The notes below the pieces were generated by a model. It was not told where the DNA came from and did not search any database. It worked only from the letters and a program-made list of their open reading frames with translations. Shown one piece after another: positions 5,134 to 64,000 of a stretch of 64,000 nt of DNA. The stretch covers positions 32,923-96,922 of IMG/VR virus record IMGVR_UViG_3300013947_000003. One strand, written 5' to 3'. Within the stretch, counting starts at the first letter, position 1; each line of letters begins with the position of its first letter. Source of the DNA: a virus. Both the position numbers and the translations under genes were made by a program.

Positions 5134-5520
5134 TTAAGATTTTTTTAGTTTATACCATGTTATTGCGGCACCTCCTATTATAAATGCAGCACCTAACCAC
5201 ATTAATAACTTTTGATACCATTTAATTTTATTAACTTCTTTCACTTCAGTTTTTGTTATATATATCGGCGTTTCAATAGAGTCTTTCTGTATCATAGTAT
5301 CAGTATGATTTAGATATTTATAAATGTACTTATACTTATATAAGTACAAGGTATCACCATTTACAAATCTGTCAATACTATCATGAACATATATACTGTC
5401 TATTTTTAATGTATTTATATATTCTGTTTTTACTTTTTCTATAGGAACTTCTTTTTCTATTATTTTAGTAGACCCACAAGCAACTAGAAAAACAAGAATA
5501 ATTATTAATAAATATCTCAT
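5134..5520 (-). CDS. Lipoprotein with C-terminal TM segment (unimolecular spanin candidate)
   Basis: Signal peptide plus lipobox LVAC|G. C-terminal hydrophobic LLMWLGAAFIIGGAAITW. TAA stop. Confidence 0.55.
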   Translation of the reverse strand: MRYLLIIILVFLVACGSTKIIEKEVPIEKVKTEYINTLKIDSIYVHDSIDRFVNGDTLYLYKYKYIYKYLNHTDTMIQKDSIETPIYITKTEVKEVNKIKWYQKLLMWLGAAFIIGGAAITWYKLKKS

Positions 5521-7795: not shown

Positions 7796-7797
7796 AA

Positions 7798-8580
7798 TTA
7801 ATCTATTAAGGTTACTATTACTTTATTCAAACTTGCATTTGCTTCAATTTCAGTCACACTATAAAACTCTACCTTAATCCTTTTTTGTATATGTTCTACA
7901 CTACTACCAACATCAATAGTAGTTTCTGTAATATATGTAGGTCTTAATTCCTAACTATAATTAGTTTTAAAAGCAAAGTTTGTAGAAGTAAAATCTAACT
8001 TACAAGGAACTCCTGTTTGTGTATTACCACTTAAAGTATTTGTTATGATTATATATGGAACATGATAATAATAAATTGCTTTTCCCACAGCTTCCCATTT
8101 ATTATTGCTGGTAATAGTGGGTGTTATAGCAATATCACGTGTGATGCTAACTGTATCCATAGAAAGTTCATGAAGGTTATCAATCTAAATTACAGGTATA
8201 GCCAAAGAAGACTCAGTGCCTTTATAAGTAGTAAAGTTGTCACTAAGCACATTAACACTGTTATTAAGGGTAGTAACGGTATTATTTACAGTAGTAACAG
8301 TATTATTTACAGAAGTAATAGACTCTTTAATATTGTCCGTCTCACTTTGAAGAGTTACAATATCTTCTTTTATACCTGATATATAGTCAGCCGTATCATC
8401 CGCATTATTTACAGACCTCCAATTTCCGTCTACAAATTGATACAGTTTACTCCCAGGATATTCACTTTTATCCTCTTCAGGATTTTGTAAAGATTCAACG
8501 TATTTACCTGCTTTTATCCACAAAACATTATGTTCTTCAGGAGCTTTTTTTGAATATACTATATCTTTATATTTTATCAT
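7798..8580 (-). CDS. Tail-fibre-like protein; TAG-recoded
   Basis: Track ORFs 8185..8580 and 7951..8160 are in one frame, joined by TAG 8185-8187. TAG 7951-7953 is read through to TAA 7798-7800. Confidence 0.6.
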
Positions 8581-10982: not shown

Positions 10983-11007
10983 ATATCTTTCAACTTTAAA
11001 TTTTATA

Positions 11008-11015
11008 CAAAGGTA
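11008..11015 (-). promoter_or_regulatory. Bacteroidota-type -7 element (TACCTTTG on minus strand)
   Basis: 26 nt upstream of the portal ATG, in the only gap between terL and the portal gene. Confidence 0.4.
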
Positions 11016-11061
11016 TCATATAATAAACAAATACACAACATAATAATTATTTTATTAACTA

Positions 11062-13299: not shown

Positions 13300-13348
13300 T
13301 TAATACCAGTTTTATTATTTCTTGTATTATATATAAATCAAACTTTTT

Positions 13349-13567
13349 CTAAAAACTCTCTAAGGAAGTGGTTGATACTTTATCTGTTTTAGTAAACCTT
13401 TCTATAAGCTCTCCTTTACTTTTAGTTATTTCATACAACTCCCCTGTGAAAGTCTTAATAATCTTCATTGTAGAATGTGTCTCCATAGTTTTTCTAACAA
13501 CAAGATTTTTACCAACTGCTTTCCCTATAGTATTTATTACTTCATTAAAGGTTAAGTCCATCTTCAA
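13349..13567 (-). CDS. Hypothetical 72-aa protein (TAG at 13349 may be read through to 13277)
   Basis: Track ORF. The terminal TAG is ambiguous in this code context. Confidence 0.4.
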   Translation of the reverse strand: MKMDLTFNEVINTIGKAVGKNLVVRKTMETHSTMKIIKTFTGELYEITKSKGELIERFTKTDKVSTTSLESF

Positions 13568-14093
13568 ATAACTTTTTTTCGCCCGAACCTCTCATTTTTC
13601 CTGAACTAACCATTTCAGTGGTAATGGCTTTTTCTGCATCTGCAAGGTCCTTAACTAATTGTGGAATCATTTTAATAGTAGAGGTTATACTATTTATAGT
13701 ATAAATAGGCTTTCCTTTATCATCTGAGGCATTAAGATCAACATCTCTAAGGAATGTTCTAACCTTATCTACTGCAATACGAGTATCCTCAAGAAGAAGC
13801 GCAGAGGGGGATTTAAAGGACTCATAAAACTACATAGCTTCTTGAACTTGTTTATCAGGTTTCCAATCCTTTAATCCCTCTCCCTCTATAACTGCTTTTG
13901 CCCTTTCTTTTGGGTCAATAATATATTGATAATCACTTCTAGGATCGCACATAAAATAAATATAAGCCAATTCCTAAAGTGCTTTATTTTTACCATTAGT
14001 TTTATCTCTAGACCATATTAATTTGAATGGCTTAAGCATTAGTGCTTCTTCCGAGATAACAACTTTATATGCATCATATTTAAACAACTTCAT
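13545..14093 (-). CDS. Hypothetical 182-aa protein just upstream of terL (packaging accessory or small terminase by position only)
   Basis: ATG 14093, two in-frame TAGs, TAA 13545-13547. Confidence 0.5.
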
Positions 14094-14103
14094 AAATAAT
14101 AAA

Positions 14104-14130
14104 TTAAAAAAGCCTCTCAACTGAGAGGCT
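14104..14130 (-). terminator. Rho-independent terminator
   Basis: Hairpin agcctctca/tgagaggct followed by a T-run on the minus strand. Confidence 0.6.
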
Positions 14131-14137
14131 TTGTCCT

Positions 14138-14548
14138 TTAAAGAATAATGTCTTTATTAGGATGGATAATTGAAGTATCTTCAGTTTCCTCCCATTCTTC
14201 TACTACAAATTCTATATCTCTGTCCTACAGTAGTAAACAGGGCTTATTATCAATTACAACAATATCAAATCTATATTCAATAACCGGATTGTCTGATATA
14301 ATACCGTCTTTAAGACTGCCGTCTTTATGCTTTTTGATTGCAAATCTGTTTGGGTTTATTGAGACAAGATCTCCTACTTTAATGCCTCTAACAGAATCTC
14401 CAACAGCTAATACTTTTTGATACTCTTTTACAGTACCTGCTTTTTTTGTAACATCTATAATATTTCCTATTTTACCATCTTCCTCATATACATCCATAGT
14501 TGTAACAAGGGCAGTAAACATAGGTTTAATTTTTTTTACTATCAACAT
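14138..14548 (-). CDS. 136-aa protein, possibly GroES/Hsp10-like fold; TAG read through
   Basis: Track ORF 14225..14548 ends in TAG. The frame continues to TAA 14138-14140, immediately before the terminator. The pattern VLAVGDSVRGIKVGDLV is reminiscent of co-chaperonins. Confidence 0.35.
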
Positions 14549-14768
14549 ATGCTTTTATTCTTTTATATTTATCATAAGGGCAAGCTAACTTACCTAATGA
14601 TGGAATATTAAAACTAGTAGTTAATTTAGAAAACTCTTCCTCTGATAAGTTTTCTTTTAAAGGTAACTCTTCTATGTGTTTTCTAATACATAGCCAAAAG
14701 GCTTTATAGGTTTTCTCCACCACATTTACTGGTAAATTTAACTCTTTTGCTATCTCTTCTATAGTCAT
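14526..14768 (-). CDS. Hypothetical 80-aa protein (possible small DNA-binding protein)
   Basis: Intact track ORF that overlaps its neighbours. Confidence 0.4.
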   Translation of the reverse strand: MTIEEIAKELNLPVNVVEKTYKAFWLCIRKHIEELPLKENLSEEEFSKLTTSFNIPSLGKLACPYDKYKRIKAYVDSKKN

Positions 14769-15148
14769 TCTGTAAAATCAAATAACAGCATAAACTTAAA
14801 ATTACCCTCGTCTTTTGTAATATTAGGTATGAATTTAGGATTTATTTTATCATCTATAATGATCTTCTTATCCCTAAGTTTAGACATTATAACCTGAAAA
14901 TGAGAACTTGTAATACCACAATCTTCTCTTACAGCCTTTTTAATCTCCTCACTCATTAATACCCTATTAAGTAATTCCTCACTTGTAATATTGAGGCTTA
15001 ATTGATACCTGTGTTTTACAAATGAGGAAATTACTTCAATCTCTCTATTTGTGAGATTATGAAAGGGCTTAAGAAACTCAAACCAATATTTAAAGAACTT
15101 TTCTTTTGTAGTGGGAATCCTAACAACATTGTTAATCTTCCCTAACAT
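14765..15148 (-). CDS. Hypothetical 127-aa protein
   Basis: Intact track ORF with an ATGA-type overlap. Confidence 0.5.
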   Translation of the reverse strand: MLGKINNVVRIPTTKEKFFKYWFEFLKPFHNLTNREIEVISSFVKHRYQLSLNITSEELLNRVLMSEEIKKAVREDCGITSSHFQVIMSKLRDKKIIIDDKINPKFIPNITKDEGNFKFMLLFDFTE

Positions 15149-15149
15149 A

Positions 15150-15407
15150 TTATTCTTCTGCTTGAGTTTCTTCTTTTACAGGAGTCATAATCTCAACAAT
15201 CTCCTTAACACACTTATCTACAAATTCCTTATCAAAGCTAATTTCATTTTCAATTACCTTAAAAAGATAATCAAGACGCTTAAAAAGAGTAGTAGTGCTA
15301 AATTGTTGAAGTTTATTATATAATGCATTATTATCCTGCTGAAGCTGTTCTGCAACTGCTTTAAGTTGTTCGTACGTAAGCTCCTTTACTTCTTTATTAT
15401 CTTCCAT
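15150..15407 (-). CDS. Hypothetical 85-aa coiled-coil protein
   Basis: Intact track ORF. Confidence 0.5.
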   Translation of the reverse strand: MEDNKEVKELTYEQLKAVAEQLQQDNNALYNKLQQFSTTTLFKRLDYLFKVIENEISFDKEFVDKCVKEIVEIMTPVKEETQAEE

Positions 15408-15410
15408 TGC

Positions 15411-15641
15411 TTATAAAGTATTATTTAAATATTTAAATCCGTATTTATTTTTATAAAGAGTTTCCCACTCTTTAATATTTAATTCTCCTGTATCTGTTCC
15501 TCCACAGTTATCACAGTATACAAGATCGTCTAAGCCCATTCTGAGTATCCTTAAAGACAAGCATTTCTTACAGTATACAACAGGTTCCTCATCATACTTT
15601 GTAGGCTCCTTGAATTCTAAAGTATCAATTGGTTCCTCCAT
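15411..15641 (-). CDS. Zinc-ribbon protein (CxxC...CxxC)
   Basis: CKKC..CDNC in a 76-aa ORF. Confidence 0.5.
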   Translation of the reverse strand: MEEPIDTLEFKEPTKYDEEPVVYCKKCLSLRILRMGLDDLVYCDNCGGTDTGELNIKEWETLYKNKYGFKYLNNTL

Positions 15642-15801
15642 CTTTATAGTATACTAATATAAAACTACCATTTTCTTTGACTAAAGATACTATGTCTTCT
15701 CTTTTAACATTTAGGTTATTTGCTTTTACTACCAACTATCGAATATTAGTTGCAGATATGGCAGTCATAACCTTTCCATCTTTAACCATAGGTTCCATCA
15801 T
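15625..15801 (-). CDS. Hypothetical 58-aa protein with in-frame TAG
   Basis: ATGATG start at 15801, TAG 15736-15738 in frame, TGA 15625-15627. Confidence 0.45.
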
Positions 15802-15980
15802 TTCTTTATTTTACCGCCTGAAGCCATCTTCATAGCATTGGCTCTTCTTTCTAATGCTGCTGCTTGTGCTTTAGCGGCCTTAATAGCAGCATTCTTTCTA
15901 CTAGGACTATTCATAATTTCCTAGTATTGTGCTAATGTATGAGCATCACTTTCAGCTTGCCATTTTTTATCAATTTTCAT
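15798..15980 (-). CDS. Hypothetical 60-aa protein with in-frame TAG
   Basis: ATG 15980, TAG 15921-15923 in frame, TGA 15798-15800 in an ATGA overlap. Confidence 0.45.
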
Positions 15981-16159
15981 CTTTTTACACTTATTTTATT
16001 AAGTTCATCATAGAAATTTAGTACAAACTACTCATTTTCTAGTGAGTGTATTTCTATAATTTTATCTATAAAGTTAAGATCGTCTAGTATAGCCAGCATG
16101 GCATGTTTAAGATATTCAATACTGGGCTTATTAAAATTATCAAGAATAGTCTGTTCCAT
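15977..16159 (-). CDS. Hypothetical 60-aa protein with in-frame TAG
   Basis: ATG 16159, TAG 16028-16030 in frame, TGA 15977-15979 in an ATGA overlap. Confidence 0.45.
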
Positions 16160-16173
16160 AATATTAAATTTAG

Positions 16174-16246
16174 TCGCCCCACTCAGAGTCGAACTGAGAT
16201 CTTCAGATTTAGAGTCTGTAGTAATAAACCGTTATACTATAGGGCA
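16174..16246 (-). tRNA. Amber-suppressor tRNA, anticodon CUA (reads UAG)
   Basis: Minus-strand sequence tgcccta ta gtataacggtttattac t acaga CT-CTA-AA tctga agat ctcag ttcgact ctgag tggggcg a. Cloverleaf with a canonical T-loop. The anticodon corresponds to plus-strand tag at 16210-16212. Confidence 0.75.
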
Positions 16247-16250
16247 TTAA

Positions 16251-16484
16251 TTAAAATATATATTTATACATTAGTATATAAAAAGCAACTGCTAAGAACT
16301 GCCCTACTATGCCCCCTGCTAATGTCATTAAAATATCCAGTTCGTCAAATTTATTTCCATATTGCTTGTCTTTAAATTCCATTCCTATGGCCAAGCCTAA
16401 TACAAATAATATTGTGCCAATAAATCCTGCAGGTATTGCATAAAAGAAATGTTTGTTCCTGTTACTTTCCGTAAACCAACTCAT
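16251..16484 (-). CDS. 77-aa membrane protein
   Basis: Intact ORF with two or three hydrophobic segments, sandwiched between tRNA genes. Confidence 0.45.
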   Translation of the reverse strand: MSWFTESNRNKHFFYAIPAGFIGTILFVLGLAIGMEFKDKQYGNKFDELDILMTLAGGIVGQFLAVAFYILMYKYIF

Positions 16485-16497
16485 AATATTTATTTTT

Positions 16498-16564
16498 TGC
16501 GGTTCCTAGTAGATTCGAACTACTATCTTCCATTTCAGGAGTAATACCATTATACTAAGGAACC
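16498..16564 (-). tRNA. tRNA-like element with truncated anticodon arm (pseudo-tRNA?)
   Basis: The acceptor (ggttcct/aggaacc), D-arm and T-arm (agtag ttcgaat ctact) are good. Only 16 nt (tcctgaaatggaagat) lie where about 22-23 nt are expected. Confidence 0.4.
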
Positions 16565-16644
16565 AAGCTCCCTCCTTCCGTCTTCTCAGATTAAGGGAGG
16601 TTATTGTACAAATTAACAACAATTAAACATCTTTCCACCGTGTG

Positions 16645-16716
16645 TCTCCCCAGAAAGACTCGAACTTTCAATGTGGGATTAGAAATCCCAAGTTATATCC
16701 CTTTAACTATGGGGAG
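16645..16716 (-). tRNA. tRNA-Arg (anticodon UCU)
   Basis: ctcccca ta gtta aagggata taac t tggga tt-TCT-aa tccca catt gaaag ttcgagt ctttc tggggag a. Confidence 0.8.
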
Positions 16717-16782
16717 CTTAATCAGAGTATTAAGATGCCACAAAGTAAAGTATAATATTTTAATTATACAAATATTTTAACA

Positions 16783-16968
16783 TTATTTAAGATTATTATT
16801 TATTTCATTGCTTAATTGTTTCATTTGTTCTTGGGTATTATCTATTCCGCCCCCATCAGCAAATTTATTATAAGTTTCTTTAATACTATTTACATCCCTA
16901 AGACCACTCTGAACACCAAGACGTATTATAATAGCCCTATCTCTCATTGGTAAGTTTTCCCAAGCCAT
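16783..16968 (-). CDS. Hypothetical 61-aa protein
   Basis: Intact track ORF. Confidence 0.4.
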   Translation of the reverse strand: MAWENLPMRDRAIIIRLGVQSGLRDVNSIKETYNKFADGGGIDNTQEQMKQLSNEINNNLK

Positions 16969-16975
16969 ATATATA

Positions 16976-17014
16976 TTAAAATTAAAGGGTATAGGGTTAA
17001 AGCCCCATACCCTT
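16976..17014 (-). terminator. Terminator-like hairpin
   Basis: aagggtataggg/ccccataccctt hairpin downstream of the 17020 gene, followed by T-rich sequence on the minus strand. Confidence 0.4.
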
Positions 17015-17019
17015 ATATA

Positions 17020-17592
17020 TTATTGAATATTTACAAAATCTATCATTAAAAATTCTTTATCAGTGCCTTCCTCTATATTCTTTTTATTATTAAACTTAGC
17101 ATATATCCAAGGCCACCAATCATCTAAATAAGTCCCTGTACATGGAGTACCTAGAGTATTGTTAGATGAATACTTATCCTCATAAGTAGGATTATGTTTA
17201 AATTCATAAACTACTGTCCAAGACTCTTTGTCAATACCTCCACAGAACTTTACTCTAGGATACTTTTTTACTAAAGTATCACAGTAATGCTGAAAGAGTT
17301 GTATATCCTCTTCATCTAATTTCCTTTCTAGAACTAGTCTAACATAACAATTTCTTTTCTTATTAAGGAAGTCTAAGAATGTTTCTATATCTCCTTTATA
17401 AGCCATAAGACCATGCCTTATTTCTACATTAAAATCCCTATCAAAACTAATCCTAAAATCAAAAAATCTAATACCTAGCTTATACTGCTCCTCTATAGAT
17501 TTACTTTGACACCTTGCTACAAATCTAAAAGGATATAGATACCATTTCTTAGGAGGTAAATATGTTAGAGAATTGTGTGATGCTATGATCAT
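17020..17592 (-). CDS. PI-PLC X-domain-like (PLC-like phosphodiesterase) protein
   Basis: ASHNSLTY..GIRFFDFRI..EIRHG resembles the catalytic His/Arg motifs of PLC-like phosphodiesterases. TAA stop. Confidence 0.5.
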   Translation of the reverse strand: MIIASHNSLTYLPPKKWYLYPFRFVARCQSKSIEEQYKLGIRFFDFRISFDRDFNVEIRHGLMAYKGDIETFLDFLNKKRNCYVRLVLERKLDEEDIQLFQHYCDTLVKKYPRVKFCGGIDKESWTVVYEFKHNPTYEDKYSSNNTLGTPCTGTYLDDWWPWIYAKFNNKKNIEEGTDKEFLMIDFVNIQ

Positions 17593-18353
17593 CTTATAAT
17601 AATATTTTTTGTAGAAAATCCTTCTTTTATTTGTACTTTAGGAAGTATTGTAACTGTATAATCATACCCGATGCCATTACATATAGCATTTGGATTGGTT
17701 TCTGTAATATAGAATGTTTCTCTTCCTGTAGTATAATTTGCTAGATCCTAGCATTCTGTACTTATACTATAACCTCCAGAACTTTCTGTAAACTGATCAG
17801 ATGTGGTTAAAGTTGCTACAGTACTTAGTACACCTATATTAAAATCTGGGGAATATGAGTTATAATATAAAAATGAATATTTATTACTAAATAATTCAGT
17901 CCTACTTAATATTAAATTTGGAGAAGTGTCTTTTTGGTAGTCTAGAAGATTTTTATAAGAATCATTATGATCTGGTACCCCTATATAAACATTTGCTGTA
18001 AGTTTTACTCCTTCAGGGAAATCATTTCTTAATACCTGTATACCCCGATATATTCTAAAATTATCACCTTCTACATTGCCTGCCAGCATCCCCGAATAAT
18101 TGTCAGCAAAGGGAAGATTTGAAGTGTCAGTACTTGGAATAACAGTTTTAAAGTAATCACCTATTACAACAGTATATATATCATCTTTATCTATATAATA
18201 AACAGGATCAGTAATAGCAAAATTGGCTTTTGGGCTATCATCTCCAATACTATCAAGAACTTCCCAATACTTCAAATTATTCTTCTGCTCTTCAAGACTA
18301 CCACCACCAGAGACAATAGTCTTACCATTTCTTTTACCTATAATATGTTTCAT
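17589..18353 (-). CDS. 254-aa virion-module protein; TAG read through
   Basis: Track ORF 17748..18353 ends in TAG. The same frame continues for 52 codons to TGA 17589-17591, which overlaps the next ATG (ATGA). Confidence 0.6.
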
Positions 18354-18415
18354 CTTTTACTTAATTTTAAGCATATTATTAGCGTTCCTATTAATCAACC
18401 TTTATTATAAAAATT

Positions 18416-26441: not shown

Positions 26442-26509
26442 GGCTCTTTAGTTTAATGTAAAACATTCTATAGTATAGAAAGATGTAGGGTCATATCCTA
26501 CAAGAGCTG
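26442..26509 (+). tRNA. tRNA-like element C with a 15-nt anticodon arm and non-canonical T-loop
   Basis: ggctctt ta gttt aatgta aaac a ttcta tagta tagaa agat gtagg gtcatat cctac aagagct g. Confidence 0.35.
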
Positions 26510-40030: not shown

Positions 40031-40928
40031 ATGAAAGTATTAAAAAGAGATGGGACTCTTGAAATGTTTAACCCTGATAAAATTATAGCAGCTGTAGAAG
40101 CAGCCTATAAATCACAGGGTAAAACTATGGGAAGTGATGTGTTATTAAGTCTTAAGGGCATTATTAATATTCATGGGGAAATTATAAGTGTTGAAACTAT
40201 TCAGGATAAAGTAGAAAAGATACTTATAGACCTTGCACCTTATGATGTTGCTAAATCTTATATTATATATAGGGAAGCACATAATCAATCTAGATTTGTT
40301 AGAGAAAGACTTGATTATATGAATAAATATGCTAATTCTTCAGATAATGCAGCTACTTCATCAGAAACAGATGCCAATGCTAATGTTTCTATGAAGAATG
40401 TAGCTAATCTTGAAGGAGAAGTATATAAAACTACTAATAGAATTATTCAGAGGCAACGCATGAAAGATAAACTTAACGAACTCTTCCCTGAAGTTGCTAA
40501 ACAGTATGAAAAAGACTTAAATGATCATATTATATATGTCCATGATGAGGCTTCTAGTCCTACTTTAAAATATTATTGCTGTGCAGTAACCCTCTATCCA
40601 TTAATGGTTGAAGGGGTTGGTAATATAGACGGTATTACTCCAATACCCCCTAATGATATACAATCTTTCAGTGGGCAAATTACTAACCTTGCATTTCTAC
40701 TATCTTCACAATGTAAGGGTGCAGTAGCTTTTGGAGATTATTTTATCGCACTTAATTATTATGTAATTAAAGAATTTGGTCCTAAGTGGTATGAAAAAGT
40801 AAATGAAGTTGTCACTAATGAGTATTATATAGAAAAGCATACTATGGCTCACTATATAAGAAAAGGTATGAAACAATTTATATATGGAGTAAATCAACCT
40901 GCTGGTAATAGAAGTTATAATTCTCCGT
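40031..40928 (+). CDS. nrdD: Anaerobic ribonucleoside-triphosphate reductase NrdD, exon 1 (ATP-cone plus N-terminal core)
   Basis: MKVLKRDGTLEMFNPDKI is an ATP-cone. The reading frame hits TAA 3 nt after the proposed splice site. Confidence 0.8.
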
Positions 40929-40977
40929 GGTAAAAATAAAACTTTTTTTGTCATTTGGTTGATTAGGAATTTTTTAT

Positions 40978-40985
40978 TAACTTTG
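40978..40985 (+). promoter_or_regulatory. Bacteroidota-type -7 element TAACTTTG inside the intron
   Basis: Same CTTTGCATA context as at 37786, 18 nt before the HNH ATG. Confidence 0.4.
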
Positions 40986-41002
40986 CATAAAGATTATAAA
41001 TT

Positions 41003-42115
41003 ATGCAAAGAAAAGATAGAAAATTTAATAAAACTCCAGAATGGTTATACGAACAATATGTTTTAAAGGAAAAACCTAGGACAGAAATAGCCAAAGAATG
41101 TGGAGTATCTGAAGCTGGATTAAAAAGTGTTTTAATAAAATACAATATTAAAAAAATTCCATTTGTACGCCCTATAAAAGAAATAAAACAATATTTGCAA
41201 GAAGGAAAATCCGTTACTGAAATATCTAAATTATTAAAATGTGGTAAAACTACTATATATAGAGTAATGAAGGATTCAAATTTATCTATTAACTATACAC
41301 CTGATTATAAACAATATGATAGTAGCAAAGACGAATTAATAATTTCACTATATTTAGAAGGATATTCTTCTACAGAAATTGCGAAAGCTCTTAATAGTAC
41401 ACACACAACTATTATAAAGCATCTAAAACACAATAATATTCCCATAAGAAGTTTTGTAGAATGTCAATTTAATCACTTGAACAAAGAGATTCCTAAAGAG
41501 CTAATCTCTTATAAGTTATTACATCAGCTCTATATAATAGAGCATAAAAGCAAAAAAGAAATAGCAAATTCATTAAATGTTGATGCTGGAACCATTAATA
41601 CTGCTTTAAAAAAGTTTAATATTCATATAAGAGGAAATTCTGAGTCTAAAATAGGTTTAAAATGTGGAGAAAACCACCATAATTGGAAAAATGGCATAAC
41701 TCCATTACATTTAAGACTTAGAGAAGCTTTTGGGGTACAATTAACGAACCAAGTGCTGAAAAGAGATGGTTACAAGTGTACAAAATGTGGAACTAAAGGT
41801 AAATTACATGTACATCATATAAGACACTTTAAAGATATTTTATGGGAAATAATAAATGAACATCCGACTTTAGATATACAAAAAGATGTAAATACTTTAT
41901 ATGACATTATAGTAAAGGATACTAGATTTTTAGATTTAAATAACTTAATAACCCTTTGCCCTAATTGTCATTATGAAGAGCATAGTAAGAAACATTGTTT
42001 TGCGGAGAATAAACGTAGTGAATTGCTGGAAAATCCAGAAGTGGACAATCAGCAGCCGAGCATTAATAACAATGAAGGTCCAGAGACTATTCCAAAAGGA
42101 AGTACACTCAAGTGA
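41003..42115 (+). CDS. HNH homing endonuclease with four N-terminal HTH repeats
   Basis: CTKCGTKGKLHVHHIRHF..NLITLCPNCH. Repeated segments xTEIAKxxxV/SxxTIxxxLKKxNI. Confidence 0.8.
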   Translation: MQRKDRKFNKTPEWLYEQYVLKEKPRTEIAKECGVSEAGLKSVLIKYNIKKIPFVRPIKEIKQYLQEGKSVTEISKLLKCGKTTIYRVMKDSNLSINYTPDYKQYDSSKDELIISLYLEGYSSTEIAKALNSTHTTIIKHLKHNNIPIRSFVECQFNHLNKEIPKELISYKLLHQLYIIEHKSKKEIANSLNVDAGTINTALKKFNIHIRGNSESKIGLKCGENHHNWKNGITPLHLRLREAFGVQLTNQVLKRDGYKCTKCGTKGKLHVHHIRHFKDILWEIINEHPTLDIQKDVNTLYDIIVKDTRFLDLNNLITLCPNCHYEEHSKKHCFAENKRSELLENPEVDNQQPSINNNEGPETIPKGSTLK

Positions 42116-42239
42116 GTGGAAGTGCTACGCTCTATTTAGAATATTCTATTTAGATGAAGATATAGTCCAAACTCTATAGTAATATAGAGAAGTTCATAAG
42201 AGAACTGCATAGAATTAACGACTCTATGTGAATATAATG

Positions 42240-43504
42240 TTACAAACGTTTCTTACTACGATAAATATTACTTCAAATCTTTGTTTGAAAACTTTAAATA
42301 TCCCGATGGAACAGAACCAGAATGGAAGGCTATAGATACTTTACAGAGAATGTTTATGCAACTTCATAGGGAATTAAGACTTATAAAACCATTAACTTTC
42401 CCTGTAAGTACAATGGCTCTTGTATATGATGATCAAGACTATCTAGATAAAGAATATAAAGAGTTATGTGCAGAAGAATGGGCAAAAGGAGGAAGTTTCT
42501 TCCTATATAGCAACAACAACCCAACATCTTTGGCAAGTTGCTGTAGAGTTTTGTCCGAAATAACCGATAATACCTTTAGTTCTACTACAGGTATGGCAGG
42601 TATTATGACTGGTTCTTGTAATGTCATTACATTGAATATCAATAGAATAGTACAAGATTGGTATAGAACACTTCCTAATGGCTATGTATATGGAGATTAT
42701 CAAGGTCTTAAAGATTATATTAAAGTCATATTAGAACGTGTATATAAGTATCACATAGCTTTCAAAACAATGCTCTATGATTTAGAGAATAAAGGTATGT
42801 TTGCCGCATCTAATGGAGGATACATTTATATGAGAAAGCTATATAGTACTATAGGTATTATAGGGTACTTTGAAGCTGCTAAGTTTTTAGGAATTACTCC
42901 TAATAATAATGAAGAATATAAACACTTTTTACAAGCAATTCTTGGTGTAGTAAAAGAAGAAAATACAGCACATTCTATAAGAGATAAAAAGCGCCCTATT
43001 TTATTTAATTTTGAAGCTATTCCTGGTGAGAATTTAGCAGTAAAATTATATAATTGGGATAAAAAAGACAACTATGTAGTTCCTAAAGATCAAAATTTGT
43101 ATAATTGTTATTTCTATAATCCTTGGGATAATACGTCTATCTTAGATAAAATTAAACTGCATGGCAAAGAAACTAGTAAATTAACCTCAGGAGGCCAAGC
43201 TTGTCATCTTAATTTAGACGAACATCTATCTAAAAAGCAGTATTTACAACTTATGGATATATTTAGAACAGAAGGCGCTAATTATGTAACTTTTAATATA
43301 CCTATGAGTGAGTGTAAAGAGTGTGGATGTACAGTTAATGCCCCCATTATAGAATGCCCTAAGTGCAAGTCTAAAAATATAAAGTGGTGGACGCGCATAA
43401 TTGGTTATCTTACCAGTGTAGATGCTTGGTCTAAACCTAGACAAGAAGAGTTTAAAAAGAGAGTATATGCTAAAATATCTAGAGACACAGATAACATTCA
43501 GTGA
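42240..43504 (+). CDS. nrdD: NrdD exon 2 (C-terminal core, Zn ribbon, glycyl-radical loop)
   Basis: CKECG..CPKC Zn ribbon and the RIIGYL glycyl-radical motif. Confidence 0.8.
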
Positions 43505-53658: not shown

Positions 53659-53707
53659 GGGGGGTAAGTTGCGGCATATGCTGCTTCTTGCCCCCTTATT
53701 TTTTTTA
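53659..53707 (+). terminator. Rho-independent terminator closing the early block
   Basis: gggggtaag...cttgccccc hairpin followed by ttatttttttt. Confidence 0.7.
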
Positions 53708-53760
53708 TAAGTAAGATATACATTTATTTAGAATTTATTGTGTTATAAGAAATTAATTAG

Positions 53761-53768
53761 TAATTTTG
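53761..53768 (+). promoter_or_regulatory. Bacteroidota-type -7 element TAATTTTG
   Basis: 23 nt upstream of the RNAP gene ATG at 53791. Confidence 0.45.
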
Positions 53769-53790
53769 TACTATTAAACAAAATATAAAT

Positions 53791-56700
53791 ATGGGAAAGT
53801 GTTATATAACATCTGACTTAGATAGAGCTGTAGCTAAAGCCGCCGGTAATTTCATGGGGAAAGGAAGTACAGCGCGGTACTTTGCATATATGCGAGGGCT
53901 ATATGATGAGAAAAATGGTGATTAGAATTGGAAAGCCATGAGTGTTGAAGAAGTAAAAAATCTTTTAACAAAATTTGAAGGAGATTTAAGAAAAGAAGAT
54001 ACTAGAAAAATAAAAGCGTCTGGTACAAATGCTTCTGATATGTTTGTACAACTTCAATAGGAAATTCCCGATGCAGTAATTAGAGAAACTAGAATTAGCT
54101 GGATTAGTCACCTGTTTAGTGAAACTGTAGATAGAATAGCAGAAAATGACTCTAGGTCTTTGGGTCTGGATAGAAAATTTATTATTAAAGGAACTATTGA
54201 CGAAGAAGGTAATACTATTTTTGGATAGAGTTACATATTTAATGCTATGTATAGAATACTTGGATCAAAATTTACCAGTGCTTGGGATACATATAAAAGC
54301 ACTGATTCAAATATAACAGAAGAATAGAAAAAACAAGCATTATATAAAGCACAGCAAATACGTTTAGTTTTAAGAAATTGGCCAGCATTTGTAACTATTG
54401 CTAGGCTTAGAATTAGAGATATTGAAGGAATAAAGTTAGGAGCCTTTAATGATTTTACAGCTGATGCAGATGAAGGTAATTTTGAAATAGAGAATTTACA
54501 AGAAAAAATTGATATAGAAGAAACTTCTATTAGAGAAGGGTGGTAGGAAATAGCAGAATCTATGTCAGCATATGCTTCAATAGGCGCAGAAGTTAGAGAA
54601 CTACTAGCTTCTATACCACAACGTAATTAGTTTGGAGAGGTGGAAAAAGATGATTTAGGCAACACTAAGTATTTAGATCCTTTATAGGTACACCAGACTT
54701 TATTAGATGCAGTAAGAGGTTCTACTTCTGAAGCAAGTATGCTTAGAAAGCTTACAAAATATGTTAATTCTCAGTATAAGGAAAGTCATAGTAAAACAGG
54801 AGCAAATAGAAGAAGATATTGGTTAGCCCCTATATTAGATAAGTTGACTTTATCTGTAGAAGATGATGATGGTGGAATTACTATATTTGAAACTACTTAG
54901 GATTATCTAGATGCACTATCGGAAGAGCAAAAAAAACTAGCAGTAGCAATTGCTTAGGGAGATTAGGAAAACATAGAAATACTAACTGACAATATAGAAG
55001 GTATGAAAGAATCTGTAGAAAGAGCAGCAAGGTTAAGAAGTAAAGTTTTTGCCGATTTAAAGCGCAATTTTCAACCTTTATATGTAGTACAGGAAGTTTT
55101 TGAGAAAGGGGTACATTATTTAAAAACTACATGTTTAAATGATAAAAAAGGTTTCAGTTTTTCAGAATAGGCACAAGCAAATCTAAAGAGAGGGCGTTCT
55201 GAAAAAGATGAAACTAACCCTCTTATTTCTAAAAGAGGAAGTAATGCACTTCCATAGGTTAGCAAAGAAAATGTAGATGCACTTGCAAAATTTATAGAAA
55301 ACAAATTCATTAAGGGTGAAAATGTAGATCTTATTAGTGGTAAATCATCATCGTGGTTTATGACAAAATCTGAGGATGAAAGCACTAAATAGGAAAAAAT
55401 ATCTGCAGTTCAGTATATTGGCAAGACTCTTGGATTTAATATTTCAAACGAAGCTGCTACTAAGATTGTAACAAATTCTAGATATGCAAAGAGATTTCAA
55501 ACTGCCATGTAGAACCTTCATAAATATGGATTAACCCATTCTTAGATGGCCAAACAATTTAAAAATGGAGGAAGTTTAAATATTATTGACTTTTTAAATG
55601 TTAAACCGGGAGGTTCTGTAAGTGAAAAAGGTGCAGTTACCGAAGCAATCGAGGTAATAGGTGATGTAATATCTGCAGTAACAACTACCTAGGAAGTACG
55701 AGTTTCCTATAAAGATAAAAAAGGTAAAAATACAATGTTATCCAGTGATGTATTGCCTTCCTATTTAGGAGATTTTGTAGAAGACATTAAGGAATTTGTT
55801 GATAATAAAGATACTGCAGGTCTTAGAAGTTTCCTTGAAGAGAGGTACTTTAATAACTGTCCAATGTTTGCTGTAAAAGATGAAAATGGAAACTGGAAAA
55901 TCCATAATATATGGTTAAGAGAATTATATAATTCAGATCTTTCTGAAGACGGAAATTTTGCAGAAATATTTGGCTCATTTAGACTTTTAGGGGACTCTAA
56001 AAATACAGGCGCTAAAAGGTTTGAAAACTATACTAAAAAACGTCATGCCTGGTCAATGCTGGAGTTGTTTTTAGCCCCAAGAAAACTTGCAGGCACAAAA
56101 GATAACAAAAAGGATTATGCTAATTATCCTTTATTTGTTTTAGGAGATAGTGGTGTTTGTAAAAATATAACTGCAAAATATTATACAAGAGATACAGTAA
56201 TGAAAGAGCTTGTGAGTCTAGCAAATACTGAAGTTGAACGTGCTAGATTGGTTTTAGAAATGAACCAAACATGTGAATTAAATGGTTGGGAAAAGCTGGA
56301 AACTTTTAGTGATGAAAATGCAGTATTAAAATTTACTTCTTTGCCCTTTTTAAATGATTACTTAGAGCTGAGAAAAGTTTAGGAAGTCAACCCCATAACC
56401 CAGGAGACAAAAACTGTTATAAAAGTATTTGATAAATTATCAGAAGAAGAAAAAGACTAGGGTAAAAAGGCTCAGGTTGTAAATGATGTTTATATAGAAA
56501 CTTGCATAAGACAAGCCATTGATAGGGATTTTGAAAATTTCTATAGACAGATAAGTGGAAATGAGGCTTTGAAATCAGATTCAGATATGGGGCTTACAAA
56601 TCTAAACTCTGGTAATAATGTTCCCTTATATTTAAGTGGGTTTTTGACAAAAAAGGAAATAGCAGATGCGCCAGAGAAAAGTAAAGAAGAAATGCAGGCA

Positions 56701-58581
56701 TTACTAAAAGAAAGGGTAAAAGATTTCTATGCTAATTATAAATTAGCAACAGCTTGTCAATTATAGATGTTTACTATAGATGCAGGTTTTTATGGTAATA
56801 CTGAAAATTTACAAAAAAGGTATAAAGAACTGCATGCTCCTGGAACAAAGGTATCAGATGATGCATTAGATTGGAAACTCGATAAACTTGCTATAGAAAA
56901 CGGCGAAGAGCGTGTAGTATACTTTGATGACATAAGTATAAGTGCAGATGAAATGGATCCCGGATTTATGGATATTATTAAAGCTAGATTTGGAACTAGC
57001 GATCCAAGTGTTGTAGATGCCTATACTAAGAATACTTTAACTGATGGCCAGGGTTATAGAACTCTAGAAAGCTATAGAAAAGTTATGATTGCTGCAGGTA
57101 AATGGAACGACTATCTAGAGCAGACTTATGATAAGATACAAGTCATCAGAGACAGAATGAGAGCAACAGGAAAAGAGCAGTTAGAGCCTGAAGAAATAAC
57201 ATAGTTGACGTAGTTGTTCGTAATATTCCAGCCATTAAAACCTTATTTATATACAATTGAAGATATTGGTGTAAGTAACGGTAGAATGCTTAAAGTTCCT
57301 GTACAACATAAATATGCAGAAGTTATTATTATTCCTGAACTTTGTGTCCCCGGCTCTAACCTTCGCGCTTTGGGAGAAGCTATGGAAGAAAATAATATAG
57401 ATGTAGTTTGTTCTACTAAATGTGTTAAAGTGGGATCATTTGGATCTATGGCTTTAGACTTTAAAACAAATGATAAAGGGCAGTTTGTAGATAAATTTGA
57501 TGATATTATTAAAGGTATAGACGAAAATGGAAATATAATAGACTCTCCTAATGTAACAAGAACACAGCAACGTGCTTATATAAAGAAGTATGGAGAAGAG
57601 GGATTACAAAGGATAACTCCTTAGACTATTAAAGATTCTATGCAAGTAATTAGAGATTCACAAGGCGCTTATGTTCATAAATTAAAATATCGTGATTATA
57701 GAATACAAACTAATGTTCCTGCACATATAAATGCCTCTAATCTATTTGGCACTTAGATTAGAAAAATTATAATGACAGGAATTGATAAAAATGGTAACTA
57801 TAGTAGTTATTTAGGAAATTCAGAAAAAGTAAATTTAGGAGACGGTTTAGTAGATCTTAATGGTAATAGGCTTATATAGTTCTACAATCAATTAATTGTT
57901 GCAAATGTTTTAGAAGGCTATCGTGATTTTGAAAAAGCTATAGATTCTATGGATAAAGTAAGTAAGTCTCTAATTTAGAATGTTATAGCTAATAGTAGAG
58001 AAGATGAAGCTAATATAATGGCGTATTGTCTTACAGGTGACGGTTAGTTTTTAGTTCCCTTATATGAGCTAGGAATAGAACATAATACATCACAAGCCCT
58101 AATTTCTTTATTTAAAAAAATGGTTAATAAATAGAGAATATAGGGAGGCGCATTAGTTTAGGCATCTGCTTGGGGAATAACTAAAATTGAAGAGGGATCT
58201 AAAGATTATGGCGATCTAGACTGGCATACTGTTGAAGAAGGTAAAAATGGTAATATAGTCTATGGAGATTGTGAAATACCATTTGATTTTAAATGGACAG
58301 ATCAGTTCGGAAGAGAACATTAGTTAGATTTTAATGACTATTGTAATCCTGATGGTACTTTTAAAATGTCGGGAAGAAAACTTAATATAGGAGGCATTAT
58401 TATAGATGAAACTTTAATAGAAAAAGACTATCCCGGAATACTTGATATAGTATCTTATAGAATACCTACAGAATCTCAATACTCTATGATGCGTCTTAGA
58501 GTGAAAAGATGTACATTACCAACACAAGGAGGTGTTATCAGAGTTCCTGCACAAGGCACTACAACTGCAGGATTTGACTTT
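53791..58581 (+). CDS. Giant virion-type (crAss gp66-like) RNA polymerase, exon 1 (1597 codons), TAG-recoded
   Basis: A single frame is open from ATG 53791 when TAG is sense (first TAG at 53923-53925, dozens follow). Track ORFs 55735, 56569, 56767, 57214 and 58366 all lie in this frame. Ends ..TTTAGFDF. Confidence 0.75.
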
Positions 58582-59467
58582 AAGCTATATTGAAGTCATT
58601 AAATTGTGTTAATTGCTGGGAACCCTTATAAAAGTCATCAATTTATATGGAAATCAGCAGCCAAGCTAGTTGAAATACTAGAAGGTTCAACGACTAAATA
58701 AATCATAGAAATAACATACGTTAATCGTTATGAAAAGTAAATTAAATAAAGATAGTAGAAATTTATTAATAGGATTATTATTAGGAGATGGTACAATATC
58801 TAATAATAATGTGTTTAAAATAGCCCATTCAGAGAAGCAAAAAGATTATTTAGAATGGAAAATAAAGCAGCTTAAAAATCATGGAATACGAAATAATGGC
58901 GTTAAAACTTATATTAAAAAGGGTGGATATAATTCAGGAGTTCCTGTATATTACACACAGCTAAATATAATACCATTTATTAAAGTGTTAAGACGTGTAT
59001 TTTATAAAGGCAAGAAAATTATTGGAAATAGGAAGTTATTAAATAGATTAAATGCTTTAGGTATTGCCGTTTGGTATATGGATGATGGGCATATAAATAT
59101 TAGAAAGTACAATGGAAAACCTTGTGGATTTTATATAAAAATCTCCACATGTGAACCTAAAGAAGAGGTACAAATAATAATAGACTATTTCAAAGAAGTT
59201 TGGGGAATAAATTTCTACATGTTTCATGAAGGTCATAAAGAGAATAGCTATTCTTTATGTTGTGGTGCTAAAGAGGGGATTAAATTTATAGAAATTGTTA
59301 AACCTTATGTACAGCAAGTTCCTTCAATGATATATAAAATAAATTATGATTTATCTCAAAGAAAAAGAAGTATTTGAGAGTACCCTTAAATGGGGAAATG
59401 CACAACATGCTACTAGCATGAAGATATAGTCTACTCTTTACAAAATAAATAATGTAAAGTATATAGG
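58582..59467 (+). mobile_element. Group I intron (886 nt) carrying a LAGLIDADG homing endonuclease
   Basis: U at 58581 precedes the intron and G at 59467 ends it. Joining gives GFDF-DIDKLY, that is the motif DFDID. An in-frame TGA occurs 3 codons into the intron. Confidence 0.7.
58730..59377 (+). CDS. LAGLIDADG homing endonuclease
   Basis: LLIGLLLGDGTIS and AVWYMDDGHI double motifs. Confidence 0.8.
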   Translation: MKSKLNKDSRNLLIGLLLGDGTISNNNVFKIAHSEKQKDYLEWKIKQLKNHGIRNNGVKTYIKKGGYNSGVPVYYTQLNIIPFIKVLRRVFYKGKKIIGNRKLLNRLNALGIAVWYMDDGHINIRKYNGKPCGFYIKISTCEPKEEVQIIIDYFKEVWGINFYMFHEGHKENSYSLCCGAKEGIKFIEIVKPYVQQVPSMIYKINYDLSQRKRSI

Positions 59468-62452
59468 GATATTGACAAATTATATTTAATGCGTAAATAG
59501 TTTTCTTTTGTATAGCGTTATGAAAGTGAAGATGAAGATATAACTGAAGAAGAAAAAAACACAGTATGGGCTAAAATTTATAATGAAAACCCGTCAATTA
59601 AAAATCATTTAGAACAAACAAAAAAATAGTGGGAAGAAAATCCCGCAAATAAAAATAAGTCTCACAAGAAGTCATTAAATTCCTTTTGGGATGAAAGCGA
59701 GTATTTAAAGAATAATTATGATAAGAATGAAATTTTTAGTAATGCATTATTGGACTTAATAAATCAAGGAGTTCTTGCCCCATTAGAAAAAATAGTAAAC
59801 ATAACTCGTAAACAAACTTATAAGTATAACCTTAATAAAAGGGTTATGGATAGTTATGATGAAACTGGTAAGTTAATAAGAGGTAATAATAGAATTGCTA
59901 GGAACAATATGCTTTTAGATCTTATTATAAAGCGTCTTGAAGATCCTGAAACTCTTGATGAAAGATTTCAGCCGGGTGAGTTTAAAAATGCAAAGCAGTC
60001 TGCTAAAATAATGCGTATATTAACACTGTCAGATAAATCATTTGAAGATTATGTACTTAATGGGAAAAAAATGAACTTTTCTGAAATAGAAAATAGTGCT
60101 AACAAAATTGCAGACCCAAAACCTAACTATGATTATACTGACCCCTTGACATTATTAACTTATAATGAGTAGAATTAGGTTGCAGGAAAATTAATTGGTA
60201 TATTTGCAAACCAAAATGTAAACTATGCTATTTCTACAATGTTATACAAATATAATCTTAATAGCCCTATAGCTTTTGGAGATCATATGCAGGGATTGTC
60301 AGATTTAATACATGCTCCTTCTGCTAAAAAAACTTGTGCCGAACTTCTTTCTGCATCTGTAGATGCTGTTAAAGATCCTGTATTGAATTATTTAAATCTC
60401 AATGAGATTACTGCTAATGCTGCAGCAGTATTAGCTAGATTGGGATATTCTACTACAGAAATAGGGTTACTATTAAATTAGCCGGTAATTAAAGATCTGT
60501 GCTAGTTTGCATTAAATAGTGGTAGAAGTACTAGTAGTGCTTTAAACCATTATATGAAGAAATATGCAGGAATAAAGCTTGTTGGTAATGAGTCTAAAAC
60601 ATATTTAACTTCTAATGCATTGGCAAATAACATAGTTATAAATAGTGCTAGAAATTCTGTAAAAGCTGAAGTTAGAAATGCTGCAGATTTAAAAACCCAA
60701 AATTATGATTTTCAAAGAGGATAGGCTGCAGTACTATAGTTATTTTCTGAAATTTTAGGAGTTACTAAAGAAGTTTCAGACTTTGTAACAAATACTAAAT
60801 TTACTGCTGCTAATGCTGTTTCTGTGTCATTTGGTAGCATGATTGCTCAATAGTTAAAAGTTAAAAGATATATAGAGGATTAGGCAAATGCAGTATTAGA
60901 CTAGAAAAACGGCAAATCCTCATTAAAAACATCTATGATAGTCTCTGAAATGCACGGTGATTCAAAAAGATTTATAGGAATGCCAAATATAAATGTTGAT
61001 GATTGGAGTTATTTGAGATCCATCGATTTTAACCCCTTTGCATACGAACAATGTATGTTTGATATGAATAGAAGAGCATTAGAAAAAATGGCAGACTACT
61101 TTCCTTATAGAAGTCCACTATATAAAGAAACAACAGACTACTTTGATGAAATGGCTAGCTATCCTATGGATGAAGATACTGTAAATGATATTATACATGA
61201 TATAATGGTGTATAAAATGGGGTCAATGCCTGGTAATAGATTTAATAAAAACACTCTTATAAAAACCAATGATGGACAAATTATGACATAGGAACAATAC
61301 TATAAATATGTGTTTCCTGATATTATAATGAATTCATCAGAGTGGGAAACATCTTTTGATGAAAAGATAACAAATGCTTTAAAGTTACTAAATAACTATG
61401 GTATTTTATCAGTTGAGTCTCATAGTGAATGGTATACTAAAGATCGTATACCAACACGAAGAACTTGGTATACCTTTGGTTTAAGAGGGTCTGCTAATCT
61501 AGACTTTGATAAAAAACAAATAACAGCTTTATTTGAAGAACTTTATGATGATCCTAAAACAAGATGGTTTATTGAAGACTTATATATGTATGACTTTTTC
61601 TAGGGAGAAAGGGGGTTTGGTCCCAAAAGTTTCACATCTTACTTGCCGCAGTCTATTACTGCTAATATAACTATGTATATTGATGGTAATGGTAACCCTG
61701 TAACATATAGAGATTGGTTAATTAAACATAAAAACGAAGGATTTGGAATAGAAGGTAATGCTAAAAATAATATAATAACTTATTATATTAGAAGGCATAG
61801 TGACAACAGACGATTTGTAAAAGAGCTCTACTCTAATGACACCTATTATAACTATTTTAAAAACAAAATTAAGAATGAACAAGGTGTTATTTCCTAGAGT
61901 ATAGAGGTTTCTACAGACAAAGAATTTGAAAGTGTTGATAATAAAGGACGATCTGAAGTTATAGACAATCCATTATATAATGCATAGAAAAATGCTTTTG
62001 TCCCTGCTTTTACTATAAATATAAATGGAACTGATTATTTGTATATATGTAAAAGTAACATAAGTGATTTTAATAAACCTAATGGGCCATTAATGGAATA
62101 TGAAAGATTTACCCCATTAAAGCCCGGATTTACTGAATATAATATAGGAACAACTTCTGAAGAAACAGAAAAAGAAAAAGCAGTAAACCAAGAAAATTTA
62201 ATTGGAGTATTTGATGAATCAGATATGAAGAAGCCGGTTACATATGCATCACTATATGAATAGGCTAAAAAAGAAACACAAGAAAAATCATATGAAGATG
62301 CAATAGTAGAAAAAATGGACCCGACACTTAGGAATATATATGAAACTTCTAGTGAAGAAGGTAAACGTGAAATTTTAAATGATATTAAAAATAATAAAAA
62401 GTGCTATGCAATGAATGATGATGGCACTATTAGTAAAACTGAACTTTGTTAA
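59468..62452 (+). CDS. Virion-type RNA polymerase, exon 2 (994 codons), TAG-recoded
   Basis: Starts DIDKLYLMRK[TAG]FSFV[TAG]RYESEDED. Track ORFs 59750, 60239, 60935, 61310, 61643 and 62039 are all in this frame. TAA at 62450-62452. Confidence 0.75.
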
Positions 62453-62454
62453 TT

Positions 62455-64000
62455 ATGGGATTTTGTATAATTAAACCTAATAAACACCAATTATGGGATG
62501 AAATTGCAGAAGTAGTTGGAAATGAAAACAGAGGGCTTATAAAATATTGGTATAATGTTGCTCACGATAATAGGTTTTTAGAAGCTTCTGCTAATGATAT
62601 AGTCTTAAATGAGGAGGGGGAACCCACGTTCTCCTCCTTATTAAAGGCTGCTAATACAACAGAATATAATGAAAAAATAAAAGAAACCCTTAATAAAAAA
62701 ATAGGTGCAGGAGAGATGACATATAAAGAGGCTTGTGAAAAGCTGTTTAACTTTAATAAGAACTCTAATTATAATGATAAATATCTAGCAACTATTCAAA
62801 GAACTGAGGGAGGGAAAGTGCGTTTATTCATAACAGAAAAGACAAACAAAACAACTAAAGACCTGTACAAACAATTAAAAAATGGTTCTATAGCAGAAAG
62901 ATTGTAGGCAAAACTAAATGAATGTGGTGTTACCTATGAATTTCTTGAAAATGCTAAATTTGAAGGTAGATATAGTACCATGAATAGTGAAAGGGTTCTT
63001 AATGGATTAAATGCTTTAATATCTATTAGAGATGGTCATATTGTAGATGAAACTTTAGCTGAAGAGGCAGGCCACTTTGTTATAGGCTCTTTAAGAGACT
63101 CTGCACTGGTAAAAAGACTTGAAAATGCATTAAATACCGATGTTATTAAAGACATTTTTGGAGAAGAATTAGAAAATAAAAATTTCGGTGCTTAGCCAAG
63201 AAGAGAGGTTGCAGGTTATTTAGTTGGATAGGCATTGTTAAATAAATTAACCCATAATAATGTTTGGAATAAACTTGCTAATAGAATCGCATACATATCT
63301 AAAAAAATATTTGCAAAGATTACTAGAAATGATACTTTAAAACTTAAGAATGAAGCTATTAATAATGCTAACTAGTTAGCAAAAAGCTTCTTAAATGATG
63401 CAGAATTTGAAGGAACTGTAGAGGAAGCATTAGAAACTAAAGAAACTTTTTATCAGGCAGATAAACATGCAATTGAACGTACATTTGAAGGTGTTAGAAA
63501 TACCTTAATGAAGCTTAGAGATGTTCTATCTATATATGATAAAGAAGCGGCATCTGCCGTTAATGGTATAATTAATGCCGCAGCTAAAGATTATTCAAAT
63601 ATTGATATGATTATGCGTCAACAGGCAACTAATGGACTATTTATGTTTATAGATGGTTTAATGGGGCAAATAGCCCCTATTAGGAAACAAATGGCTGTTG
63701 TTAGATAGCATATGGAAAGTAATTCCGATTACTGGAATAATTTTGTTTAGGATGGTAAAACATTAAGACAATATAGAGATACTGTAAAAGCTGTTGTTGA
63801 GTGCATTGACATTATAAATAAATATGTATAGACTTTATCTCCTGAATCTAAAGATTATAATTAGAGAACTGTATTTATGGATGAGGGGGGAGGAGTTTTA
63901 AAGGAAACTACCCAATACTTAAAGAACATTGCCTTCGAACTTCAAAATCTTATTAAAGGAGAAAACACTAATTTAGAAAATGAAGTGTTTGACTTAACTA
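62455..64000 (+). CDS. Second large TAG-recoded late protein, 3' end beyond the window
   Basis: ATG at 62455. Track ORFs 62446, 62980 and 63508 share its frame and are joined by TAGs. Confidence 0.6.

Follow-up and report, generated by a model that had tools for sequence, protein, structure and literature searches.

The RNA polymerase (RNAP) gene of a crAss-like gut phage is very probably interrupted, within the codons of its DFDID motif, by a splicing group I intron that carries a LAGLIDADG gene. The interruption lies in a 64,000-nucleotide stretch of viral DNA from IMG/VR record IMGVR_UViG_3300013947_000003, hereafter the window. Across about 50 related contigs (L003-L054, L138 and L139), introns of the same family stand behind the first, the second or the third codon of the motif, and both the three insertion sites and the mosaic structure of the introns are directly observed. 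We lean, if only slightly, towards one intron family that occupies three consecutive codon boundaries by means of address ends of its own (P1 guide, P10 and P9) and synonymous codons, around a freely recombining core and LAGLIDADG gene; this would be an undescribed natural retargeting system within a single endonuclease target. The phage itself is Steigviridae-like, its closest named relative being cr116_1 (Pamirivirus faecium; TerL 73% identical).

Two long reading frames, 53764-58593 and 59453-62452, are open when TAG is read as sense. The 3' end of exon 1 is ..VPAQGTTTAGFDF (...GCA GGA TTT GAC TTT, last base T58581); left unspliced, the frame runs on as AAG CTA TAT TGA (K L Y stop), and downstream of G59467 the sequence resumes at 59468 with GAT ATT GAC AAA TTA..., encoding DIDKLYLMRK. 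Joining the two exons (Table 1) gives 2591 codons with 47 in-frame TAGs. A first-pass annotation, made from the letters of the sequence, had already placed the end of exon 1 at the U of 58581, the TGA three codons further on and the resumption after G59467, had called the insert 886 nt long and had forecast a mature frame 2591 codons long in which dozens of TAGs are read as sense; all of these readings stood. A search of relatives with a single RNAP fragment found none, whereas an alignment-based search of viral contigs did find RNAP relatives. Among them is L058 (IMGVR_UViG_3300045988_177920, 94 kb), whose RNAP segment is uninterrupted and 80% identical to that of the window at the protein level. 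By blastn, positions 56000-58581 of the window correspond to 138-2689 of L058 and positions 59468-61717 to 2690-4915. Because this alignment is gapless across 58581/59468, the 886 bp represent an exact, clean insertion. The joined exon DNA, GCAGGATTTGACTTT followed by GATATTGACAAA, is identical to the uninterrupted sequence of L058. Across the junction we predict the spliced cDNA GACTTTGATATT and the peptide ...TTTAGFDFDIDK....

Table 1. Coordinates in the window of the split RNAP gene, the elements of its intron and other features discussed in the text.
Feature	Position	Strand	Remarks
RNAP exon 1	53791..58581	+	1597 codons, 30 in-frame TAG; ends GGA TTT GAC TTT (GFDF); collinear with L058 to 58581
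Group I intron	58582..59467	+	886 nt: 148-nt 5' ribozyme part, 648-nt ORF, 90-nt 3' ribozyme part
RNAP exon 2	59468..62452	+	994 codons and stop, 17 in-frame TAG; starts GAT ATT GAC AAA (DIDK); collinear with L058 from 59468
P1	UGACUUU 58575-58581 / GAAGUCA 58592-58598	+	7 bp; U58581.G58592 wobble at 5' splice site
P10	exon 2 GAUAU 59468-59472 / guide AUAUU 58587-58591	+	5 bp
5' core half	58604..58696	+	
P3	58604-09 / 59400-05	+	compensatory changes in 5 of 6 pairs
P4	58614-19 / 58654-59	+	Rfam alignment; invariant
P5	58624-25 / 58649-50	+	Rfam alignment
P6	58661-62 / 58684-85	+	invariant
P6a	58666-70 / 58677-81	+	compensatory changes in 5 of 5 pairs
P7	GACUA 58692-96 / UAGUC 59427-31	+	invariant; P3/P7 pseudoknot present
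Intron ORF	58730..59377	+	215 aa, two-motif LAGLIDADG, monomeric type; between P7 5' strand and P3 3' strand
3' core half	59355..59467	+	
P7.1-like hairpin	59355-60 / 59373-78	+	spans ORF stop codon; read by eye only
P7.2	59383-85 / 59392-94	+	pairs in window; 67% of cells paired, poor alignment across relatives
P8	59406-10 / 59416-20	+	compensatory changes in 4 of 5 pairs
P9	59436-41 / 59454-59	+	pairs in window; 34% of cells paired, poor alignment across relatives
Terminal intron G	59467	+	
tRNA, anticodon CUA	16173..16246	-	ARAGORN; Rfam tRNA 52.4 bits
Second group I intron	40929-42239		in nrdD (anaerobic ribonucleotide reductase); exons 40031-40928 and 42240-43504

The two ends of the insert together make up a group I ribozyme core. 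The first-pass annotation had proposed such an intron, and the proposal is borne out by a P3-P8 core, P1, P10 and a terminal G, with P3, P6a and P8 covarying in relatives. The J8/7 and J6/7 elements (GUUCAACGACUA, GAAGAUAUAGUC) match the Rfam consensus. When 16 compact relatives were aligned, 86% of cells were paired, against 30-44% with the partners slid by 1-3 columns, and changes on both sides occurred in 18 of the 40 pairs, a value reached in none of 500 shuffles. P1 also shows compensatory changes, a U-A pair of the window being C-G in L028 and A-U in L022. A rival P3, in which GUGUU and AACAU would pair ahead of the ORF, was discarded in favour of the strand GCACAA after the ORF, which covaries across relatives. 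The architecture is IA-like, with the ORF between the 5' strand of P7 and the 3' strand of P3 and with P7.1/P7.2-type hairpins; no P2 helix was seen, and the subgroup is therefore only tentative. We infer that the window intron is self-splicing.

Rfam group I models, which the first-pass annotation had suggested as a check, detected the core in two pieces when the region was searched alone. Model RF00028 matched the 5' half at 58611-58698 (36.6 bits, E=2.5e-7; P4 to P6, J6/7 and the 5' strand of P7) and the 3' half at 59362-59450 (16.8 bits, E=0.21; P8, J8/7, the 3' strand of P7 and P9). Each half stays short of the gathering score, 50, as the core model is broken up by the 648-nt ORF. Scans of the whole 64 kb (gathering threshold; E<=0.01) reported only tRNAs and neither of the two introns of the window, which become visible to Rfam only in regions of ~1.2-1.5 kb searched alone. 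The second intron, in nrdD, scores 75.6 bits at 41957-42189 when its region is searched alone; since this is above the gathering score, speed filters must hide it in the 64-kb scans. AT-rich phage genomes therefore probably hold more ORF-bearing introns than current counts show. The nrdD intron ORF (41003-42115) encodes an HNH endonuclease with HTH and NUMOD1 domains; it follows the 5' splice site, precedes the guide GCGGAGA and is located outside the core, unlike the ORF of the RNAP intron. The joined nrdD exons read CCG T/TT ACA AAC, restoring SPFTNVS.

What does the intron interrupt? Splicing in silico restores GFDF/DIDK in the late, TAG-recoded RNAP gene, and D-F-D-I-D-K spans the junction in 12 homologs from databases, in most of them as AGFDFDIDKLY within the pattern AGFDFDIDKLY(L/F)M. 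A single-sequence search of the PDB with 297 aa around the junction returned nothing relevant, and a profile was needed: built from the homologs, it matched phi14:2 gp66 (PDB 6VR4 chain A) with E=1.5e-36 and aligned DFDIDKlYlM to DFDIDKMYVM of gp66. The first-pass annotation had held that the intron splits the DFDID of a crAss-like RNAP and had pointed to gp66 as the protein to align; with that alignment in hand, and with a DFDID-type motif at the junction in the homologs, identification of the split motif as the catalytic one is supported. In gp66, RNA synthesis is lost when any one aspartate of 1361-DFDID-1365 is changed to alanine, and virions of phi14:2 contain this RNAP, which transcribes the early genes (bioRxiv 10.1101/2020.03.07.982082). 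By analogy, the window RNAP may likewise be packaged and transcribe early genes. The two proteins have in common a homologous gene, the DFDIDK catalytic motif and a single-chain two-barrel design; gp66, however, has 2180 residues and is uninterrupted and written in the standard code, whereas the window gene comprises 2591 codons and is TAG-recoded and intron-split. The insertion falls in the most conserved 15 nt of the RNAP gene (consensus of 76 intron-less alleles, GACTTTGATATTGAT). Introns and inteins are known to favour sites that are conserved and critical to function (Swithers et al., 2009, PMC2814812), a statistical generalisation rather than a specific system, with which the window insertion agrees. 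The position of the intron independently singles out DFDID as the part of this very rapidly evolving enzyme that is under the strongest constraint.

The intron ORF starts from its own ATG in a frame different from that of the exons. It matches Pfam LAGLIDADG_2 (PF03161) with E=3.7e-26 and 92.5 bits against a cut-off of 25, over profile positions 2-163 of 168. Both LAGLIDADG motifs that had been noted in the first pass are readable, LLIGLLLGDGTI at residues 12-23 and LGIAVWYMDDGHI at residues 109-121, each ending in an acidic catalytic residue. The closest solved relative is I-SceI (PDB 1R7M, 5A0M), likewise a monomeric two-motif LAGLIDADG enzyme encoded by a group I intron, although its host is the organellar LSU rRNA gene of yeast mitochondria rather than a phage RNAP gene; the similarity is weak (E=3e-5) and covers only the C-terminal half, where LGIAVWYMDDGHI aligns to FMDDGG of I-SceI. 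The ORF would be expected to specify an active endonuclease, with a target in the RNAP gene. None of its 215 codons is TAG, where ~3.9 would be expected at the rate of the host gene. This absence does not extend to the family as a rule, since relatives carry sense TAGs in the same ORF: among those compared (L004, L014, L015, L018, L024-L029 and L042), several have 1-5 internal in-frame TAGs in the conserved endonuclease, and the intron gene itself is therefore recoded in these phages.

In IMG/VR viral contigs, most of ~100 kb, 54 relatives of the endonuclease were found at 25-82% identity (all but two at least 42%), and one more in the Logan contig L003. Between phages, the introns are 70-88% identical, compared with 34-58% for the flanking RNAP exons. 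Presence of the intron is sporadic among RNAP loci, and intron-plus (window) and intron-minus (L058) alleles both exist. Such coexistence of alleles, together with an intron more conserved than its host gene, points to a mobile (homing) intron. The motif is uninterrupted in 76 of the 79 best RNAP loci, a sample that favours intact motifs, since one of the two search patterns can match no other form; 75 of these read D[FM]D[IV]DK and one, L097, reads DMDFDK. Three apparent further cases of interruption were set aside: L097 has this intact variant motif, L086 starts past the motif, and P0023, which starts MDIDKLYLM, lies on a TGA-recoded contig in which DMDID is intact.

All readable junctions of the family, which comprises roughly 35 distinct introns, fall within DFDID, at three positions. 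Nineteen loci carry the intron after codon 1 (site 1, D/FDID), 14 including the window after codon 2 (site 2, DF/DID), and 15, in addition to cr116_1 and bajarodcaudo virus 1, after codon 3 (site 3, DFD followed by ID or VD). A U precedes every 5' splice site and a G every 3' splice site at all three sites, whereas P1 and P10 are specific to each site type: P1 is a 12-bp helix at site 1 (ACUGGUUCGGAU/GUUCGAACCAGU), UGACUUU/GRAGUCA at site 2 and ACUUCGAU/GUUGAAGU at site 3. Codon usage follows the sites as well. The first aspartate is encoded by GAT in all 19 site-1 genes and by GAC in 69 of the 76 intron-less genes; the phenylalanine is encoded by TTC in 15 of 15 site-3 genes and by TTT in 66 of the 76 intron-less ones. 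In a neighbour-joining tree of the endonucleases (no bootstrap), the three sites are intermixed. The pair L016 (site 1) and L012 (site 3) is particularly instructive: the two are 90-100% identical over most of the intron interior and 78-80% identical in three 40-nt windows within the ORF, but share only 35% in the first 40 nt, where L016 is 88% identical to the site-1 intron L013. From this mosaic and the site-specific guides, it follows that the intron ends act as site-specific address modules and that core and endonuclease have been recombined between them. It is plausible that all three insertions disrupt one ~20-bp endonuclease target, and one endonuclease specificity may serve all three sites. 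Staggered sites with exchangeable cores would provide a tractable natural series for studying how group I introns retarget and how LAGLIDADG enzymes tolerate shifts in position.

How might the intron leave the transcript and spread? Our proposal for the window is modelled on the established group I and homing pathways. Upon folding of the pre-mRNA, the last seven bases of exon 1 would form P1 with the internal guide and thereby present U58581, after which a free guanosine bound in P7 would attack. Pairing of the guide with the first five bases of exon 2 in P10 would align that exon, G59467 would enter the G site, and the exons would be ligated to give GAC UUU GAU AUU GAC, encoding DFDID with its Mg-binding aspartate triad. 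The intron ORF would produce a monomeric two-motif LAGLIDADG endonuclease, which is expected to cut intron-less alleles in co-infecting phages; the L058 allele GGATTTGACTTTGATATTGACAAA (GCAGGATTTGACTTTGATATTGACAAA) is a candidate target. Repair from the intron-bearing copy would then spread the intron.

Alternatively, the intron may splice but no longer move, its endonuclease being inactive or acting as a maturase only, with the element inherited vertically. In line with this, the LAGLIDADG protein of the transcription block has been labelled an 'endonuclease maturase' (PMC7886860), and the exons of different phages are only ~50% identical, a divergence that would make homing between genera inefficient. 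On the other hand, the ORF is intact, with both motifs and with the acidic residues of MDDG aligned to I-SceI, the introns are far more alike than the host genes and patchy in distribution, and recent mosaics exist, as the 90-100% identity of L016 and L012 in the intron interior illustrates. The intact ORF, the gap between intron and host identity and the recent mosaics argue for ongoing transfer, and we consider a loss of mobility unlikely, albeit not far-fetched. Another possibility is a truly split gene, in which two polypeptides are made, the endonuclease gene that separates them stands on its own and the ribozyme-like sequence is a dead relic; the public annotation of the homologous cr116_1 region as three genes would be in line with this. 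The break, however, separates F from the second D of a five-residue metal-binding motif, exon 1 meets a stop after three further codons, and no start codon opens exon 2 at the junction. Moreover, all core helices are maintained by compensatory changes, P1 and P10 fit the exons at all three sites, and the polymerase is required for early transcription in the model phage; we regard a split gene as highly improbable.

If the intron does splice, its boundaries might conceivably lie one base upstream, at 58580/59467, yielding DLDID instead of DFDID: the intron follows on two T (T58580 and T58581) and closes with two G (G59466 and G59467), and either junction leaves the frame intact. Yet P1 sets U58581 opposite G58592 in the canonical wobble and pairs U58580 with A, and all homologs as well as the intron-less L058 read TTT (F), so that such a shift seems exceedingly improbable; junction cDNA would read GACTTGGAT for 58581/59468 and GACTTTGAT if shifted by one base. 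Removal at the protein level, as an intein, has practically no chance. LAGLIDADG inteins do target catalytic motifs and occur in crAss-like phages, but the reading frames already rule this out here: the insert is out of frame and meets TGA after three codons, and its ORF lies in another frame with its own ATG. In addition, a Pfam search of the ORF found no Hint domain, and a group I core is present.

In crAss-like phages, group I introns and inteins have been reported to be dense, and TAG recoding occurs alongside suppressor tRNAs (Yutin et al., 2021, PMC7886860). Because group I introns in these phages are already published, the window intron represents a known type of element. In the same study, the legend of Fig. 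3 places an 'intron-encoded endonuclease maturase' of the LAGLIDADG type in the block of transcription genes, other host genes are listed in the text for the Delta group, and the Zeta group is the only one for which breaks in the RNAP DxDxD motif are described, in the form of stop codons and frameshifts that point to 'yet unknown expression mechanisms' (PMC7886860). The introns reported there and the window intron share the phage order, late-gene TAG recoding with suppressor tRNAs, and the form of endonuclease-ORF group I introns in core genes. They differ in that the window break belongs to a Steigviridae-like phage and can be traced, with base-exact ends, to a group I intron, and that its relatives use three staggered sites. 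As far as could be found, the three-site family is undescribed: the searched literature contained no other paper linking LAGLIDADG with crAss-like phages, and no description of a base-resolved RNAP intron or of the three sites. If our reading holds, the intron family may explain some of the RNAP DxDxD disruptions credited to 'unknown expression mechanisms' in large crAss-like phages.

A distant branch of the family is formed by L047-L054 (contigs of 94-174 kb), with endonucleases 45-49% identical, insertion at DF/DID and introns of 1043-1070 nt that have ~290-330 nt ahead of the ORF. These may be Zeta-type crAss-like phages with reported DxDxD disruptions; compared with phage records, their proteins gave hits of only 30%, to unannotated 'Bacteriophage sp.' records.

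[quoted passage not shown] They are group I introns in genes essential to the phage, splice themselves out as is predicted for the window intron, and resemble it in their looped-out homing endonuclease ORF and variable presence among related phages; nrdD is a host gene in the window too. In contrast, their enzymes are of the GIY-YIG or HNH type rather than LAGLIDADG, and their hosts are nucleotide-metabolism genes rather than an RNAP gene. The T4 intron ORFs sit in the P6/P6a and P9.1 loops, unlike the ORF in the window, and we know of no report of staggered insertion sites for the T4 introns.

The intron also matters for annotation, since public records break up the largest gene of these abundant gut phages into unrelated 'hypothetical proteins'. 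In RefSeq cr116_1 (L138; NC_055882.1 41634-54278), for example, the site-3 intron is unannotated and the locus is listed as three unrelated genes; the intron is likewise unannotated in PQ006092.1 and NC_055902.1. Public records that carry the intron show the RNAP as two proteins ('VOG3903' and 'hypothetical protein'), and the intervening endonuclease is entered as 'hypothetical protein' or 'endonuclease'. With base-exact splice sites, the full polymerase can be reconstructed.

The 47 TAG codons of the RNAP gene are likely read by the CUA tRNA as a suppressor, a role that published TAG recoding in crAss-like phages suggests (PMC7886860). Two more Rfam tRNA-like matches, at 16500-16564 on the minus strand (45.6 bits) and 26442-26509 on the plus strand (44.9 bits), were not called by ARAGORN. 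The genetic code is split along the window: at 27800-49100 on the plus strand, the standard code suffices to keep long ORFs open (nrdD and a family A DNA polymerase among them), whereas TAG must be read as sense in the minus-strand block at 1-18400, which includes TerL at 11062-13299, and in the RNAP block at 53700-64000 on the plus strand.
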